From IMG/VR virus record IMGVR_UViG_3300046507_000506, positions 29,642 to 93,641 of that record: DNA of 64,000 nt. The stretch is one strand, 5' to 3'. The translations under genes were made by a program, and so were the position numbers. The notes beneath the pieces are model-generated. The model did not search any database. It was not told the DNA's origin and worked only from the letters and a program-made list of their open reading frames with translations. Origin of the DNA: a virus. The stretch's first letter is position 1. Each line of letters begins with the position of its first letter. Shown piece by piece: positions 3,706 to 30,114 of this stretch.

Positions 3706-3891
3706 TTATTCGAGCGCGGTTTTCACGAGCACCGCGAGGCGTAGATACTCGCCTACCCACTTCGGGAACCTCTGCGCGCCCATCCATCGCGAAACGGTCG
3801 TCGGATCGACGCCGAGGCGGCGCGCGAACTCTGCTTGCGTCCATCCAAGCGTGGCGAGAGAATGGGAAAAGTCGGCTGTTTTCATAGCCAT
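3706..3891 (-). CDS. Small XRE-family HTH protein
   Basis: LGWTQAEFARRLGVDPTTVSRW helix-turn-helix. Confidence 0.8.
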   Translation of the reverse strand: MAMKTADFSHSLATLGWTQAEFARRLGVDPTTVSRWMGAQRFPKWVGEYLRLAVLVKTALE

Positions 3892-3898
3892 GATCTTA

Positions 3899-3944
3899 GC
3901 AAAATGCAGAGCTTTGCGCGGGTCAGTATCTGCATTTTGCAGAT
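3899..3944. promoter_or_regulatory. Inverted-repeat operator-like site between divergent genes
   Basis: GCAAAATGCAGA (3899-3910) and TCTGCATTTTGC (3929-3940) are exact reverse complements; ATCTGCATTTTGCAGAT is itself near-palindromic. Confidence 0.55.
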
Positions 3945-3954
3945 TGGAGGGTTT

Positions 3955-4203
3955 ATGGACTTACCGCAAGCTGATGGCGCTGACCCGGCCACCGTTTTCA
4001 CGGCCGCACTTGCCGCCCTGTTCAGCACACACCCCGATCCTGCGGCCCTCCTGAAGGCTTGGGAGCCCGTCGCCACGTCCATCCCCCTGATGATGCTGAA
4101 GAACGGCGCTACGGACGTGCACGCGAATGCAAACGTGGTGATCGCGCAGGCACTGCTCCATATCGCGCGAGTGAATGCAGGCGCGCCGCCACCTGTTGAC
4201 TAG
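3955..4203 (+). CDS. Hypothetical protein (MDLPQADG...)
   Basis: GGAGG RBS before ATG 3955. Confidence 0.65.
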   Translation: MDLPQADGADPATVFTAALAALFSTHPDPAALLKAWEPVATSIPLMMLKNGATDVHANANVVIAQALLHIARVNAGAPPPVD

Positions 4204-4396
4204 GAAACCCGCGCTTCATACACTGGCGACGCTTTCACACATGGCGGCTTGGTGCAGTAAGAGCCTGCCCCGCCAGTGCCAGCCGGTCGCGCGAGCGACG
4301 TATGCGGATAGCCGCCATTGTGAAAGCCGCTCCCATGCGGTCCAGTTAGCAAGTCGCCTTGTGCCGCTTGTCCGCATCGCTGCAATGGGAGCACCT

Positions 4397-4536
4397 TCAG
4401 CACGGCCGTAGCTCAGTTGGTAGAGCGCCCCTCGTATGGGGAGAGAAGTAGTCGCGAAATGGCGGTAGCGCCCGCGCGACGATCTTCCGGTATCGGCCGG
4501 TACGCGCGCGGGTTCGAATCCCGTCGGCCGTGCTGA
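4397..4536 (+). ncRNA. tRNA-like RNA with canonical D and T arms but no canonical anticodon arm
   Basis: TAGCTCAGTTGGTAGAGC D arm, GCGGGTTCGAATCCCGT T arm, 12-bp closing stem TCAGCACGGCCG/CGGCCGTGCTGA, ~80-nt multi-hairpin insert, no CCA. Confidence 0.7.
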
Positions 4537-4871
4537 GGGTGAATGGTGGACGTGAAACTATGTCCCTTACTTTGCATGCACTGACCTGCCTCTGACTGTA
4601 CTGCGAATCAGACCGAGTCATCATTCACTCTCAACAGATGCGGAACCGTGGGCGGCGGTGAGTCAGTAGGGAAAGCGTCGATTGAACGATGTAGCGTTCG
4701 GCGCGGAGCCCGAAAGCAATAGACCGTGCGAGTGGTCGAGCATGCCGTTAAAGCGCAAGGTTCTGGCGCATGAGCAGGGGAAGGGCCTGCACTCTCACGC
4801 ATGGCGATCGGTGGAGTACCGTTCAAGAAATCGTCAGTTCCGTGCGCTTGCGGAACCAGTCGCCATGACGT

Positions 4872-4946
4872 GAGAGTGATCGGATAGTGGAAAGCGCAGG
4901 CGTCACAGCCGTCTAGCAGGGTTCGATACCGTGCCCTTTCACTCTC
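4872..4946 (+). ncRNA. Second, degenerate tRNA-like element
   Basis: GAGAGTGA/TCACTCTC closing stem, TAGTGGAAAG D-loop-like segment, GGC-GTCACA-GCC hairpin, GGTTCGATACC T-loop. Confidence 0.5.
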
Positions 4947-5031
4947 AACGCGCGGCCTGTAAGGGTTGTACCGGCCAGCCAGTGACCCCTTAAAAGGTCC
5001 GCCGCGCACCCTTCCCCCTCACACCACCACC

Positions 5032-5514
5032 ATGACATTTCCCTTCCGCGATACCGAAGCGGCGCTAATGGCCGCCGAAATTCGAGAGCAGATTTACGAG
5101 GATTTCCGTTCGGTTGTGGGCACGAATGAGCCCAAGCCTTATACACCGCCCGCGCCGATGCCGACATACGAGGAAATGACCGAGCAGTTGCATCGCGCGG
5201 CGAATCCCACGCCTGCCGACGTGGCGGCGCGCATGCTCAACCAGCAAGCGCAATCCGGTGCACCGCCTTGGTCTTGGGAATGGGTGATGGGCGAACCGCT
5301 ATGGCTCGAAATGCGCCGGGCAATGAAGCGCGTGAAGCGTGAAGCGCCCGCGTATGCGCCGCTGCCGGAAAGCGTCACCAAGCCGGAAGTGCTCGACCTG
5401 GTAGACCTGCGCGACGCTGGCTATGAGTTGTTGGACGTGACAGCCGACGGCGTTGTTACGCTGCGCTCGCCCCATACCGTGCGAGCCGTCTACATGACTG
5501 CGACCATTCGCTAG
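5032..5514 (+). CDS. Hypothetical protein
   Basis: Open frame from ATG 5032, followed by terminator. Confidence 0.65.
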   Translation: MTFPFRDTEAALMAAEIREQIYEDFRSVVGTNEPKPYTPPAPMPTYEEMTEQLHRAANPTPADVAARMLNQQAQSGAPPWSWEWVMGEPLWLEMRRAMKRVKREAPAYAPLPESVTKPEVLDLVDLRDAGYELLDVTADGVVTLRSPHTVRAVYMTATIR

Positions 5515-5532
5515 TGATCGCGCCAAGCCAAC

Positions 5533-5564
5533 GAAAAGGCCCGGCATTGCGTCCGGGCCTTTTC
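5533..5564. terminator. Bidirectional rho-independent terminator
   Basis: GAAAAGGCCCGG...CCGGGCCTTTTC between convergent genes. Confidence 0.85.
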
Positions 5565-5572
5565 ACATTCCG

Positions 5573-24867: not shown

Positions 24868-25763
24868 CGAACCTCGTGAGCCTGAAGAAGATCGCCGAGG
24901 ACAAGACGCAGACGGCCATCGGCATCAAGAAAATGACCGATTACATGCTCGACCCCCGCGCGATCAGCATCAAGCCGAATTTCAACGCGCGCGACATGGT
25001 CAACATGAGCCGTCGCACGCGGGAGCACGTCGATAGCATCAAGGCGGCCGTTCGCGCCGGTGAGACAATGCCGCCGCTCGACGTGCGCATCGAGGGCGAC
25101 AAGATCTACGTGGTGGAGGGTCACTGCCGCCTCGTCGCCTACCTCGAACTGATCGCCGAGGGCGTGGAAATCATGCTCGTGGCGGTGCGCCAGTTCAACG
25201 GCAACGATGAGGACGCGGATTTTCACGTGCTCAACAGCGCGAGCCAGTTGCACCTGACCCGGCTCGAACAGGGCCGCAAGTACAAGGGCCGCGTCAGCCT
25301 GGGATGGACGGTCGCACAGATTGCCGAGCGCGCGCGCAAGTCGCCGAGCTACGTCGAGCAAAACCTGATGCTAGCGAACGCGGATTCGGACGTTCAGCGC
25401 CTGCTCGAAGACGAGACGGTATCGGCGAAAGTCGCGCTTACCGCAATTCGCAAGCACGGCGCGAAGGCCGGTGCCTACCTGCAAAGCATTGTGGATGGCA
25501 CTGACGGCAAGGTCACGCCGAGCAAGATCGGCCCTACCCTCTCGCCGAAACTCGCCGCGCGCGCGGCCGATTCGATGGCCGGTTTGTTCGGCAATTTTCA
25601 GCCTTCCCGCCTGGAGGCGATTCGCGTCGCGGAGCCGGACGAGGTCATTTCCCTGCGCGCCGCCGACCTGCAAGCGCTGCTCGCGGTGTACGACGCACAC
25701 CTCGCGAAAGCCGCCCGCAAGGCCGGAAACAACGCCGTCGGGGCCGCCGCCGATGCCTCGTAA
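24864..25763 (+). CDS. ParB/Srx-like domain protein with HTH
   Basis: FNAR...MPPLDVR...VVEGHCR...[17 protein letters not shown]. Confidence 0.75.
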
Positions 25764-28881: not shown

Positions 28882-30114
28882 ATGCCGAGAGCAAAACCCA
28901 AGACACTGGAAGCGCCGCCGAGCATCGGCGGCCGTAGCGAAGTCAAGAAACACAATAACGCAATTCACGTCAGCGGCGAGCTTTCGCTCGTTGGCCGCAA
29001 GCTCGTGAATGTGCTGCTGCTCAATGCATACGACAATCTCGCGCGGCAGCGCGATCACACCATTCCGGTGCCGCTGCTGTGCGACCTGATCGGTTGGGAG
29101 AGTAGCGGCAACATCGACAGCCTCAAAGACGCGCTGCGTCAGTTGGCATCGACGCCAATAGAGTTCGACCTGTTCAACCGCGACGGCAAGCCCACATGGG
29201 ACGTTACCGCGATGGTTGCGCACGCACGCATTGAGGGCGGCGTGTGCCGGTACGAGTACAGCAAATTCCTGTCTGAAAAACTCTCGGACCCGGAAATGTA
29301 TTCGATCATCAATATCGGCGTGCAGCGCGAGTTCAAGGGCGCGTACTCCCTTACCCTATATGAGAACTGTCTGCGCTTTCGCGGCACAGAAAGCGGCTCG
29401 ACGGGATGGTGGCCTATCGCGACGTGGCGCAAGGTGCTCGGCGCAAATGCCGCGCTATACGACGAGTTCAAGTTCTTTTCGAGCAAGGTCATCAAGCCCG
29501 CCGTTGACGAAATCAACAAGGTTTCCGACCTGATCGTTGAGCCCGAATACCAGCGTAAGGGCCGCTTCGTCACAGATATCCGGTTTCTCGTGAAAGACAA
29601 TCCGCAGCGTTCACTGCTCGACATGACGACAGACGCGAGCGGCGCAAAGGATTCGGACGCCTACAAACTGCTCGTTGAACTGGGCGTCGGCGCGACGCTC
29701 GCGCTCTCGATGGTGACGAAAGACGAGGCGCGCGCGGCTGAGATTGCCCGCTACACAAAGGAACGGCTCGATAGCGGTGAAATCACCGGCAGCGCGGGCG
29801 GCTATGCGCGCACGCTGTTCGAGACAAACGCGGTCGTGAAGAAACCGGCGAAACGAAAGGGTGCAGACAAGAAAGCCGATGGAGTGGGGGAGGGCGGGAG
29901 CGAGGCCGACGAGCAAGCCAGCAAGACGCGCGCGGCGGTTGCGGCGTTGACCGCAGAGGAGCGGGCCGCGCTCGCTGCCGAGTTCATCACGAACACCGGA
30001 ACGAGCGCGACATATGATGCAGGCAAAGACAAGGTTGGCACCCTGGTGGAGACTCGCCAGTATCGCGACTTCACGCGGCAGCGGGCGGCCGACGTGATCG
30101 CCGCGCGCCGTTAG
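28882..30114 (+). CDS. Plasmid replication initiator (Rep_3/RepB family)
   Basis: KKHNNAIH...LSLVGRKL.N.LL..AY; YSLTLYE; FKFF..KVIKPAVDEINK.SD; AAGGAGG RBS; follows iterons. Confidence 0.9.
   Translation: MPRAKPKTLEAPPSIGGRSEVKKHNNAIHVSGELSLVGRKLVNVLLLNAYDNLARQRDHTIPVPLLCDLIGWESSGNIDSLKDALRQLASTPIEFDLFNRDGKPTWDVTAMVAHARIEGGVCRYEYSKFLSEKLSDPEMYSIINIGVQREFKGAYSLTLYENCLRFRGTESGSTGWWPIATWRKVLGANAALYDEFKFFSSKVIKPAVDEINKVSDLIVEPEYQRKGRFVTDIRFLVKDNPQRSLLDMTTDASGAKDSDAYKLLVELGVGATLALSMVTKDEARAAEIARYTKERLDSGEITGSAGGYARTLFETNAVVKKPAKRKGADKKADGVGEGGSEADEQASKTRAAVAALTAEERAALAAEFITNTGTSATYDAGKDKVGTLVETRQYRDFTRQRAADVIAARR

Follow-up and report, generated by a model that had tools for sequence, protein, structure and literature searches.

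Anatomy of the tRNA-shaped module

We examined a tRNA-like element on the plus strand of IMG/VR virus record IMGVR_UViG_3300046507_000506, working with a 64,000-nt stretch (positions 29,642 to 93,641 of the record; hereafter the window, whose first letter is position 1). The window forms the right-hand 64 kb of the 93.6-kb record, which is a temperate phage-plasmid, and has a G+C content of 61%. A first-pass annotation, made from the letters alone, had drawn attention to positions 4397-4536 and described a tRNA elbow whose anticodon arm is replaced by a domain of about 80 nt. The Rfam tRNA model (RF00005) aligns to 4402-4532 (+) with 43.7 bits, where the gathering score is 29, and this is the sole Rfam match in the window at that level. 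In this alignment the acceptor, D arm, and T arm are matched, and a large insert between them is placed in the variable region. The minimum free energy (MFE) fold of 4397-4536 (-72.2 kcal/mol; z = -3.46 against dinucleotide shuffles) consists of a 12-bp terminal helix, the D arm, a hairpin with a 4-bp stem and a 6-nt loop, a long capped stem, a further hairpin, and the T arm. Between them, the Rfam alignment and the MFE fold recover every structural element that the annotation had listed, including the retained D and T arms. The extension of the acceptor pairing that it described is also present, but is longer than the 12 bp it gave: from the sequence and the fold of the surrounding RNA array, 4392-4408 pairs with 4525-4541 to form a closing helix of 17 bp with one G-U pair. 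With this outer pairing the whole stem-locked, tRNA-shaped module spans 4392-4541 (+), and 4396-4537 scores 118 bits with the family covariance model R1 described below.

Read from its 5' end, the module begins with the 5' strand of the closing helix (4392-4408), in which a paired leader (4392-4401) precedes the equivalent of a 7-bp acceptor strand (4402-4408). The segment 4409-4427 contains U8-A9, the D arm (stem 4411-4414/4423-4426, with a loop GG corresponding to tRNA positions 18/19), and G26, and is near-invariant in the family. It is followed by hairpin 1 (4428-4441), a vestigial anticodon arm of four C-G pairs closed by a 6-nt loop, and by an A-G dinucleotide (4442-4443) equivalent to tRNA positions 44/45, which is invariant in 7 of 7 sequences of our alignment A1. 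A long irregular hairpin (4444-4488), comprising a base helix, an inner 6-bp helix, and a 4-bp tip with a 4-nt loop, makes up the first part of the variable-region insert. Hairpin 2 (4490-4503) has a self-complementary G/C core at its tip and adopts an alternative register, 4487-4500, in the single-sequence fold. The linker and T arm occupy 4504-4524, with the linker ending in C48 (4507) and the stem 4508-4512/4520-4524 carrying a canonical 7-nt loop. The 3' strand of the closing helix (4525-4541) completes the module without a CCA, as the annotation had said. The G-U pair 4508/4524 is compatible with the plus strand only, and the same holds for G-U pairs of several helices in the aligned family.

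Hairpin 1 lies after G26 and before the A-G at 44/45, which is exactly the slot of the anticodon arm. From this position and the placement of the insert by the Rfam alignment, it follows that the remaining ~60 nt, which form the long hairpin and hairpin 2, have been inserted into the variable region. A structured insert is thus present as first described, but it does not replace the anticodon arm, which survives as a shrunken hairpin beside it.

A conserved RNA family

Homologues were collected with sequence patterns. A 19-nt pattern running from the D stem to the first hairpin returned four viral records with the same architecture, and further members came from less stringent patterns and from scans of genomes and metagenomes. 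Two of the search patterns imposed part of the conserved motifs; a third, which left the insert unconstrained, returned mainly the same members. The pattern scan of genome contigs gave 2 true members among 28 matches, and one over-degenerate pattern gave mostly chance matches. The result is a conserved RNA family of ~31 distinct sequences, with homologues in ~30 IMG/VR records and eight enterobacterial plasmids; its diversity is modest, most sequences being closely related enteric copies. Its carriers are Burkholderia/Paraburkholderia phage-plasmids, prophages and P1-size plasmids of enterobacteria, and one cultured phage, Cronobacter phage JK004. Members are found on a 93-kb contig of Paraburkholderia sp. 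C35, on the Burkholderia vietnamiensis G4 plasmid pBVIE05 (CP000621.1, 88 kb), in one Raoultella genome, on 46-99 kb plasmids of Enterobacter, Citrobacter, Salmonella, and Serratia, and in many enterobacterial prophage records of 36-60 kb. Members were carried by 2 of 150 sampled Burkholderiaceae species genomes and by one of 5,426 complete E. coli genomes, in the latter case on a plasmid. Other loci are cited below by L number.

A covariance model, R1, built from 7 homologues, scores family members at 68-155 bits and the ordinary tRNAs of two host genomes at no more than ~38 bits; the highest non-member match in the searched genomes is at most 50 bits. In 150 Burkholderiales genomes R1 gave 85-nt matches only, at 42-50 bits, which we assumed, without inspecting them, to be tRNAs with long variable arms. 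The family is not in Rfam as a family of its own, and our literature searches turned up no account of it. In existing annotation, the JK004 member (MZ188976.1, 48369-48497) is unannotated, and no listed feature overlaps the element in JK004 or in nine PLSDB plasmid matches, although the PLSDB gene table omits RNA genes. The member on the P1-size E. coli plasmid (NZ_JBRBPZ010000006.1, 30635-30763; L118:6006-6134) is labeled by PGAP/RefSeq as a 129-nt tRNA-Met.

The helices of the module are maintained by compensatory changes. In an alignment of 33 distinct rows fitted to the model, 98% of cells are paired and 30 of the 38 pairs show double changes; none of 500 shuffles reached the observed pairing or covariation values, and no slid register came close. 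An independent MAFFT/RNAalifold alignment of 7 sequences recovered compensation in 21 of 38 pairs. The homologues thus do not show the random degeneration that the annotation had named as counting against its reading, and its argument that an intact elbow with a structured insert does not look like simple decay is upheld by compensatory changes across phages of Betaproteobacteria and Gammaproteobacteria.

Conservation is distributed unevenly along the module. The core consists of U8-A9, a near-invariant D arm with GG at 18/19, G26, and a T loop whose key positions are invariant. The stem of hairpin 1 has four or five C-G pairs and is almost invariant, its loop of 4-6 nt is lineage-specific, and the A-G directly after it is invariant. 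The two-hairpin insert (~60 nt) is present in all members but one. Its long hairpin has a base helix that is conserved between Burkholderia-type and enteric members and covaries among lineages, enclosing an interior of variable sequence, and hairpin 2 (helix 8) shows double changes in 6 of 6 pairs, shares its self-complementary G/C core between the Burkholderia-type and enteric members, and is degenerate in L257 and L259. The closing helix measures 15-19 bp in Burkholderiales-type members and 9-10 bp in enteric members, many of which have an outer irregular helix in addition. Covariation is seen in its extension, where C-G in the window corresponds to A-U in L089, and in every member the leader is paired to the trailer, with covariation.

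The tertiary contact between positions 15 and 48 covaries as well. G15 (4416) pairs with C48 (4507) in the window and A15 with U48 in enteric members; among distinct sequences the pair is A-U in 23 and G-C in 9, a change that splits essentially two lineages and so represents one or two events. Such covariation would be expected of an L-shaped core that is preserved despite 60 nt inserted just upstream of position 48. Together, the D arm, T arm, 15-48 pair, and G26 indicate, at the level of sequence, a genuine tRNA L-shape.

Decoding capacity

We asked whether the element could still decode. With default settings ARAGORN reports no tRNA and no transfer-messenger RNA (tmRNA) in the window, and the full D stem of the element sets it apart from tmRNA. 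When introns are allowed, ARAGORN calls a tRNA-Arg(CCG) with a 52-nt intron and 2 mismatches in the 5-bp anticodon stem, a poor and forced solution. The cloverleaf core is sound, with a 7-bp acceptor, D arm, and T arm scoring above the gathering score in RF00005, where homologues reach 35-49 bits, and the tertiary contacts (15-48 pair, D-loop GG, key T-loop positions) are kept. The anticodon arm is where the likeness fails, since a stem of 4-5 bp with a variable loop of 4-6 nt stands in place of the 5-bp stem and 7-nt loop of a tRNA. CCA is not encoded in any member, the trailer being paired with the leader instead. True tRNAs also occur in the related loci L118, L249, and L268, and each of these does encode CCA.

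In 8 members we removed, one at a time, each possible segment of 20 nt or more lying between the D and T arms, and ran ARAGORN on all the resulting variants. No anticodon was common to the homologues; the commonest calls were His, Ser, Met, and undetermined, all by way of the hairpin 1 loop. The phage record contains no RtcB or RNA-ligase (Rnl) family. Excision of the insert to leave a normal tRNA, which the annotation had put forward as the outcome that would count against it, therefore finds no support, and because no deletion restores a consistent anticodon and the phage lacks an RNA ligase, the element is neither a decaying nor a spliced tRNA. An ancestral isotype could not be read from host tRNAs, which match the generic D-arm region only; hairpin 1 and the A-G may resemble a Thr-type anticodon arm. 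We conclude with high confidence that the element is a conserved non-decoding tRNA mimic.

Genomic setting

In the window, the mimic is the third module of an ~0.8-kb array of stem-closed RNA modules (4231-5010, +) that has no open reading frame (ORF) supported by third-position G+C and folds with z = -4.81. Upstream lie a gene for a 61-aa helix-turn-helix (HTH) regulator of Cro/XRE type (3709-3891, -; Pfam HTH_31/HTH_3, PHROG transcriptional regulator), which is kept in L089 and L092, a 15-nt palindrome beside it (3929-3943), an 82-aa ORF of no known family (3955-4203, +), and a sigma-70-type promoter-like site (4196-4224, +) with a predicted start near 4231. The -10 element and the first ~15 transcribed bases of this site are kept in L092 and pBVIE05, and the switch-like layout of 3709-4224 as a whole (HTH gene, palindrome, 82-aa ORF, promoter) is kept in Paraburkholderia sp. 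C35 and partly in pBVIE05. Downstream, a 160-aa ORF (5032-5514, +) is followed by a strong intrinsic terminator (~5538-5565), the two forming a unit (5032-5570) that closes the predicted transcription unit. The 160-aa ORF has no Pfam, PHROG, or PADLOC match, and its counterparts in pBVIE05 and JK004 are unrelated to it.

The array holds all three copies of an 8-nt closing-stem motif that the 64-kb window contains (4626, 4790, and 4940), and a one-base variant of it lies at the mimic (4392). These copies have only two complements, at 4534 and 4871, so that alternative pairings between array modules are possible. The ORF-free module 4626-4808, which is bounded by copies of the motif, is probably another uncatalogued structured RNA. 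It is 88.5% identical to Paraburkholderia sp. C35 (~97% over 4630-4740, with flanks at ~75%), its mismatches show no codon periodicity, it has no Rfam match, and it is absent from pBVIE05. Elsewhere in the window, a 141-aa open frame at 25473-25673 (-) has a sub-threshold match to PolyA_pol/CCA-adding nucleotidyltransferase (14 bits, E = 0.003) that is too weak to interpret.

The surroundings of the element change from one relative to the next. In pBVIE05 it is the second module of the array, and the modules and ORFs that follow differ from those of the window; flanking modules and downstream ORFs differ among relatives generally. Enteric prophages have a CI-type repressor gene ~1 kb upstream of the element, with the terminator of that gene lying between the two, and in one such prophage (L088) a terminator-like site follows it by ~100 nt. 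In JK004 and on the E. coli plasmid it stands at the start of a short block of rightward genes, and on the plasmid a tRNA and a Tad2 anti-defence gene come just downstream, Tad2 being ~0.8 kb away. It lies in or beside phage tRNA clusters in L268, L118, and L249, and in L268 it terminates a four-tRNA array (Gly/Met/Glu/Trp). Since the flanks differ and no protein family accompanies the element, the RNA itself is, by these sequence comparisons, the conserved unit.

Two further RNAs were seen at related loci. The prophage L088 contains an STnc100 small RNA (L088:3906-4094, -; RF02076, 79 bits) ~8 kb from its family member, and a Burkholderiales-2 motif is found at L255:2088-2162.

Proposed mode of action

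We tentatively favor a reading in which the element is a trans-acting, stem-locked mimic that binds a factor recognizing the tRNA body. The promoter-like site at 4196-4224 would drive its rightward transcription, the element being the third module of the array, and its expression may follow the Cro-like switch that the phage-plasmid carries next to it. Neither of the two working ends of a tRNA appears to be usable in it, the acceptor being held within a 17-bp helix without CCA and the anticodon arm being reduced to a 4-bp hairpin with a drifting loop. For RNase P, the CCA-adding enzyme, and the aminoacyl-tRNA synthetases to act, the acceptor must have 7 bp and its 3' end must be free. The closing helix continues past the +1/73 boundary and is maintained there by compensatory change, as though selection had favored it as a barrier to maturation and charging and as a shield for the ends. 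By preventing maturation, charging, and end degradation, it would let the RNA persist in an inert form that resembles a tRNA. A host or phage factor could then bind to a surface formed by the elbow and the lineage-conserved variable-region domain, and would either be titrated, with the RNA acting as a decoy or sponge, or be recruited. It is because the helix would block the ends and leave the elbow and the variable-region domain exposed that we favor a binder of the tRNA body. The setting also speaks for this reading, being accessory and regulatory in character, with the divergent HTH regulator and its palindrome upstream in the window and Tad2 downstream on the E. coli plasmid.

A narrower version of this reading is possible, though we hold it to be unlikely: the mimic may be a tRNA-shaped, end-locked decoy, an RNA-level counter-measure or regulator that captures a tRNA-targeting toxin, a defence nuclease, or a processing enzyme, with the Cro-like switch setting its output. 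A further possibility is that the mimic is one domain of a multi-module RNA of ~0.8 kb whose assembly would rely on the self-complementary tips of hairpins and on the closing-stem motifs that recur in it.

Several observations weigh against a tRNA-body binder. Neither the anticodon loop nor the CCA end, the sites at which the best-known tRNA-targeting toxins and defence nucleases act, is present here. A decoy for anticodon nucleases, one of the functions that the annotation had offered, is for its part unlikely, as the loop at the anticodon position has only 4-6 nt and drifts freely. The short variant in L268 (111 nt) has two small hairpins instead of the long hairpin, so part of the insert is dispensable. 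No protein partner emerged, in that an all-against-all BLASTP comparison of ORFs within 6 kb at 25 loci found no family common across lineages. The 33-row alignment was fitted to the model, and its agreement with the structure is inflated to that extent. Finally, the family is rare, as the counts in Burkholderiaceae and E. coli show, and any function it has is therefore niche.

Alternative explanations

Among the readings that would make the element something other than a tRNA-body binder, the main rival, which we rate as unlikely though ahead of the others, treats it as a processing or punctuation module. RNase P or RNase Z acting at the tRNA body, or RNase III acting on the 17-bp helix stacked on the T stem, would separate the array modules and the downstream mRNA. 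Elsewhere, tRNA-like structures do act as cutting signals, as in mascRNA and the T4 tRNA cluster. The placement of the element within promoter-driven non-coding arrays or phage tRNA clusters is consistent with such a role, as are the L268 copy at the end of its tRNA array and the long stem that closes each module of the window array, with the 8-nt closing-stem motif present three times. However, all members have a leader whose pairing, backed by covariation, spans the canonical RNase P site. From what is established for RNase P, this disfavors cleavage at +1, and with it the RNase P-processed mimic that the annotation had suggested, and the enteric helix, with only 9-10 continuous pairs, is short for RNase III. 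Moreover, a conserved variable-region domain and a covarying 15-48 pair would be superfluous for a cut site, and the flanking modules that would be separated are not conserved alongside the element. An improbable reading, less so than those that follow, is a natural tRNA scaffold, in which the tRNA body would lend folding and nuclease resistance to an insert acting by target pairing or by pairing of two copies through the tip of hairpin 2. Two parts of the insert, the long-hairpin base and the G/C core in hairpin 2, are indeed common to Burkholderia-type and enteric members, and the lineage L086/L087 altered both symmetric core positions together, but that change is one event, the interior sequence of the long hairpin is not conserved, L268 lacks this hairpin altogether, and hairpin 2 is degenerate in L257/L259. 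As for targets, the hairpin 1 loop and hairpin 2 of the window have complements of 8-9 nt downstream, one of them 17 nt past the start codon of the 160-aa ORF; by a rough estimate, ~4 such 8-mer complements are expected by chance in 1.8 kb of GC-rich sequence, and more with GC bias. Scans for 8-mer complements in the window and 13 homologous loci found no homologue with a complement to the same part of the element, and we rejected an antisense target, none being conserved.

The other three explanations appear far less probable. A functionless, decaying tRNA pseudogene with a chance insertion would account for the lost anticodon loop, the absent CCA, the rarity of the family, and the copies with a degenerate hairpin 2 in L257/L259, but is very hard to reconcile with an architecture that phages from two classes of proteobacteria have maintained, every helix and the tertiary pair showing compensatory changes, and with covariation within the insert itself. 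A working tRNA from which the insert is removed as an intron is a shade less credible still. It has in its favor the PGAP tRNA-Met call on the E. coli plasmid homologue (NZ_JBRBPZ010000006.1), the Arg(CCG) call of intron-allowing ARAGORN, and a CU-NNN-G-like string before hairpin 2 in most members. This string, considered as a displayed anticodon, was rejected: it is the 3' strand of a covarying helix, it differs in L255/L256, and no anticodon stem surrounds it or could form around it. It probably explains the Met call, and the tRNA-Met label is almost certainly a mis-annotation. The poor ARAGORN intron model and the inconsistent anticodons left by deletions led us to reject a spliced tRNA as well; CCA is lacking, as is a ligase in the phage record, and the insert, which has no Rfam intron match, is at ~60 nt too short for a group I core. 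Least probable of all, in our estimate, is a bacterial Y RNA of YrlA type tethering a Ro60/Rsr ring to an exonuclease, another idea raised by the annotation. YrlA (RF02553), found in bacteria and phages, is likewise a non-decoding RNA with tRNA-like D and T arms and an acceptor-like stem; it is modified by tRNA enzymes and is cut by RNase P in M. smegmatis (Chen et al. 2014, PMC4201824). However, the YrlA gene adjoins that of Ro60/Rsr, and its 5'/3' stem is the Ro-binding module (PMC4201824), whereas the element ends in an acceptor helix, its 5'/3' helix continuing the acceptor stem in the opposite of the YrlA topology. The element has no match to the YrlA model at gathering score or at E values up to 5, and a TROVE (Ro) gene was found in none of four records (the phage and three member-carrying host genomes), the controls D. 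radiodurans and B. thetaiotaomicron being positive.

Comparison with known RNAs

Compared with ordinary phage tRNAs (RF00005), the element shares the 7-bp acceptor equivalent, U8, the D arm with G18/G19, G26, the canonical T loop, and the 15-48 pair, and it differs in having no 7-nt anticodon loop, no conserved anticodon, and no CCA, and in having a paired leader and trailer and a 60-nt variable-region domain. T4 species 1 and 2 (RNAC/RNAD) are stable tRNA-like phage RNAs of ~120-140 nt that are co-located with tRNA genes, as the element is in L268, L118, and L249, do not decode, and have no known function. They mature like tRNAs, through RNase P and with CCA ends, whereas the members of the present family have locked ends and no CCA. 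An engineered counterpart is the tRNA scaffold of Ponchon and Dardel (2007), in which the body reportedly keeps the acceptor, D, and T arms, holds a foreign RNA in the anticodon stem, confers folding and nuclease resistance, and is processed at its tRNA ends; the element instead carries its insert in the variable region and has its ends locked. The C4 RNA of P1/P7 and the CI RNA of P4 are small structured immunity RNAs of temperate P1-type elements that derive from the leader of a repressor-controlled operon, matured by tRNA-processing enzymes and without a full tRNA core. The element does not match the C4 model (RF01695), and no target complementarity near the downstream ORF is conserved in 13 homologous loci. 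Lak megaphages encode tRNAs with 'enigmatic introns' whose removal leaves a normal tRNA (Devoto et al. 2019, PMC6784885). Those genes resemble the element in being oversized, tRNA-like phage genes that bacterial tRNA finders cannot classify, but they differ from it in that its anticodon arm is never restored by removal. Non-decoding tRNA look-alikes of phages are thus already known, and it is the locked design with an expanded variable arm that is new and uncatalogued.

The usual explanation for tRNA genes in phages is either codon supply or the replacement of tRNAs destroyed by host defence systems. A conserved phage tRNA shape built for neither charging nor decoding would point to a use of that shape outside translation. 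The 'tRNA-Met' label, meanwhile, distorts inventories of phage tRNAs. The existence of culturable carriers (B. vietnamiensis G4 with pBVIE05, Cronobacter phage JK004, and several enterobacterial phage-plasmids) makes the function directly testable.

Other tRNA look-alikes

A pattern requiring a consensus D arm and a T loop 65-95 nt apart matched 84 viral records (L002-L085; for example L027, L033, L038, and L058). In AT-rich examples read by eye, the 5' strand of the anticodon stem is interrupted, at about position 28, by an insert of 40-50 nt that has a 7-nt motif in common at its 3' end, and a normal anticodon hairpin (Lys, Ile, Asn) follows the insert; several of these genes encode CCA. The inserts look like a recurrent intron-like insertion class, possibly akin to the tRNA introns of Lak phages (PMC6784885).

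In a 171-kb phage (L258:868-940) we found a tRNA look-alike of ~70 nt, directly upstream of a normal tRNA, in which the anticodon arm has become a 4-bp C/G stem with a tetraloop and no insert is present in the variable region; anticodon-less tRNA bodies therefore recur outside the stem-locked family. Tandem partial tRNA-like units, each consisting of a 6-bp C/G hairpin with a 3-nt loop, a T arm, and an acceptor 3' strand, occur in metagenome contigs, at L278:6126-6298 and in L270.

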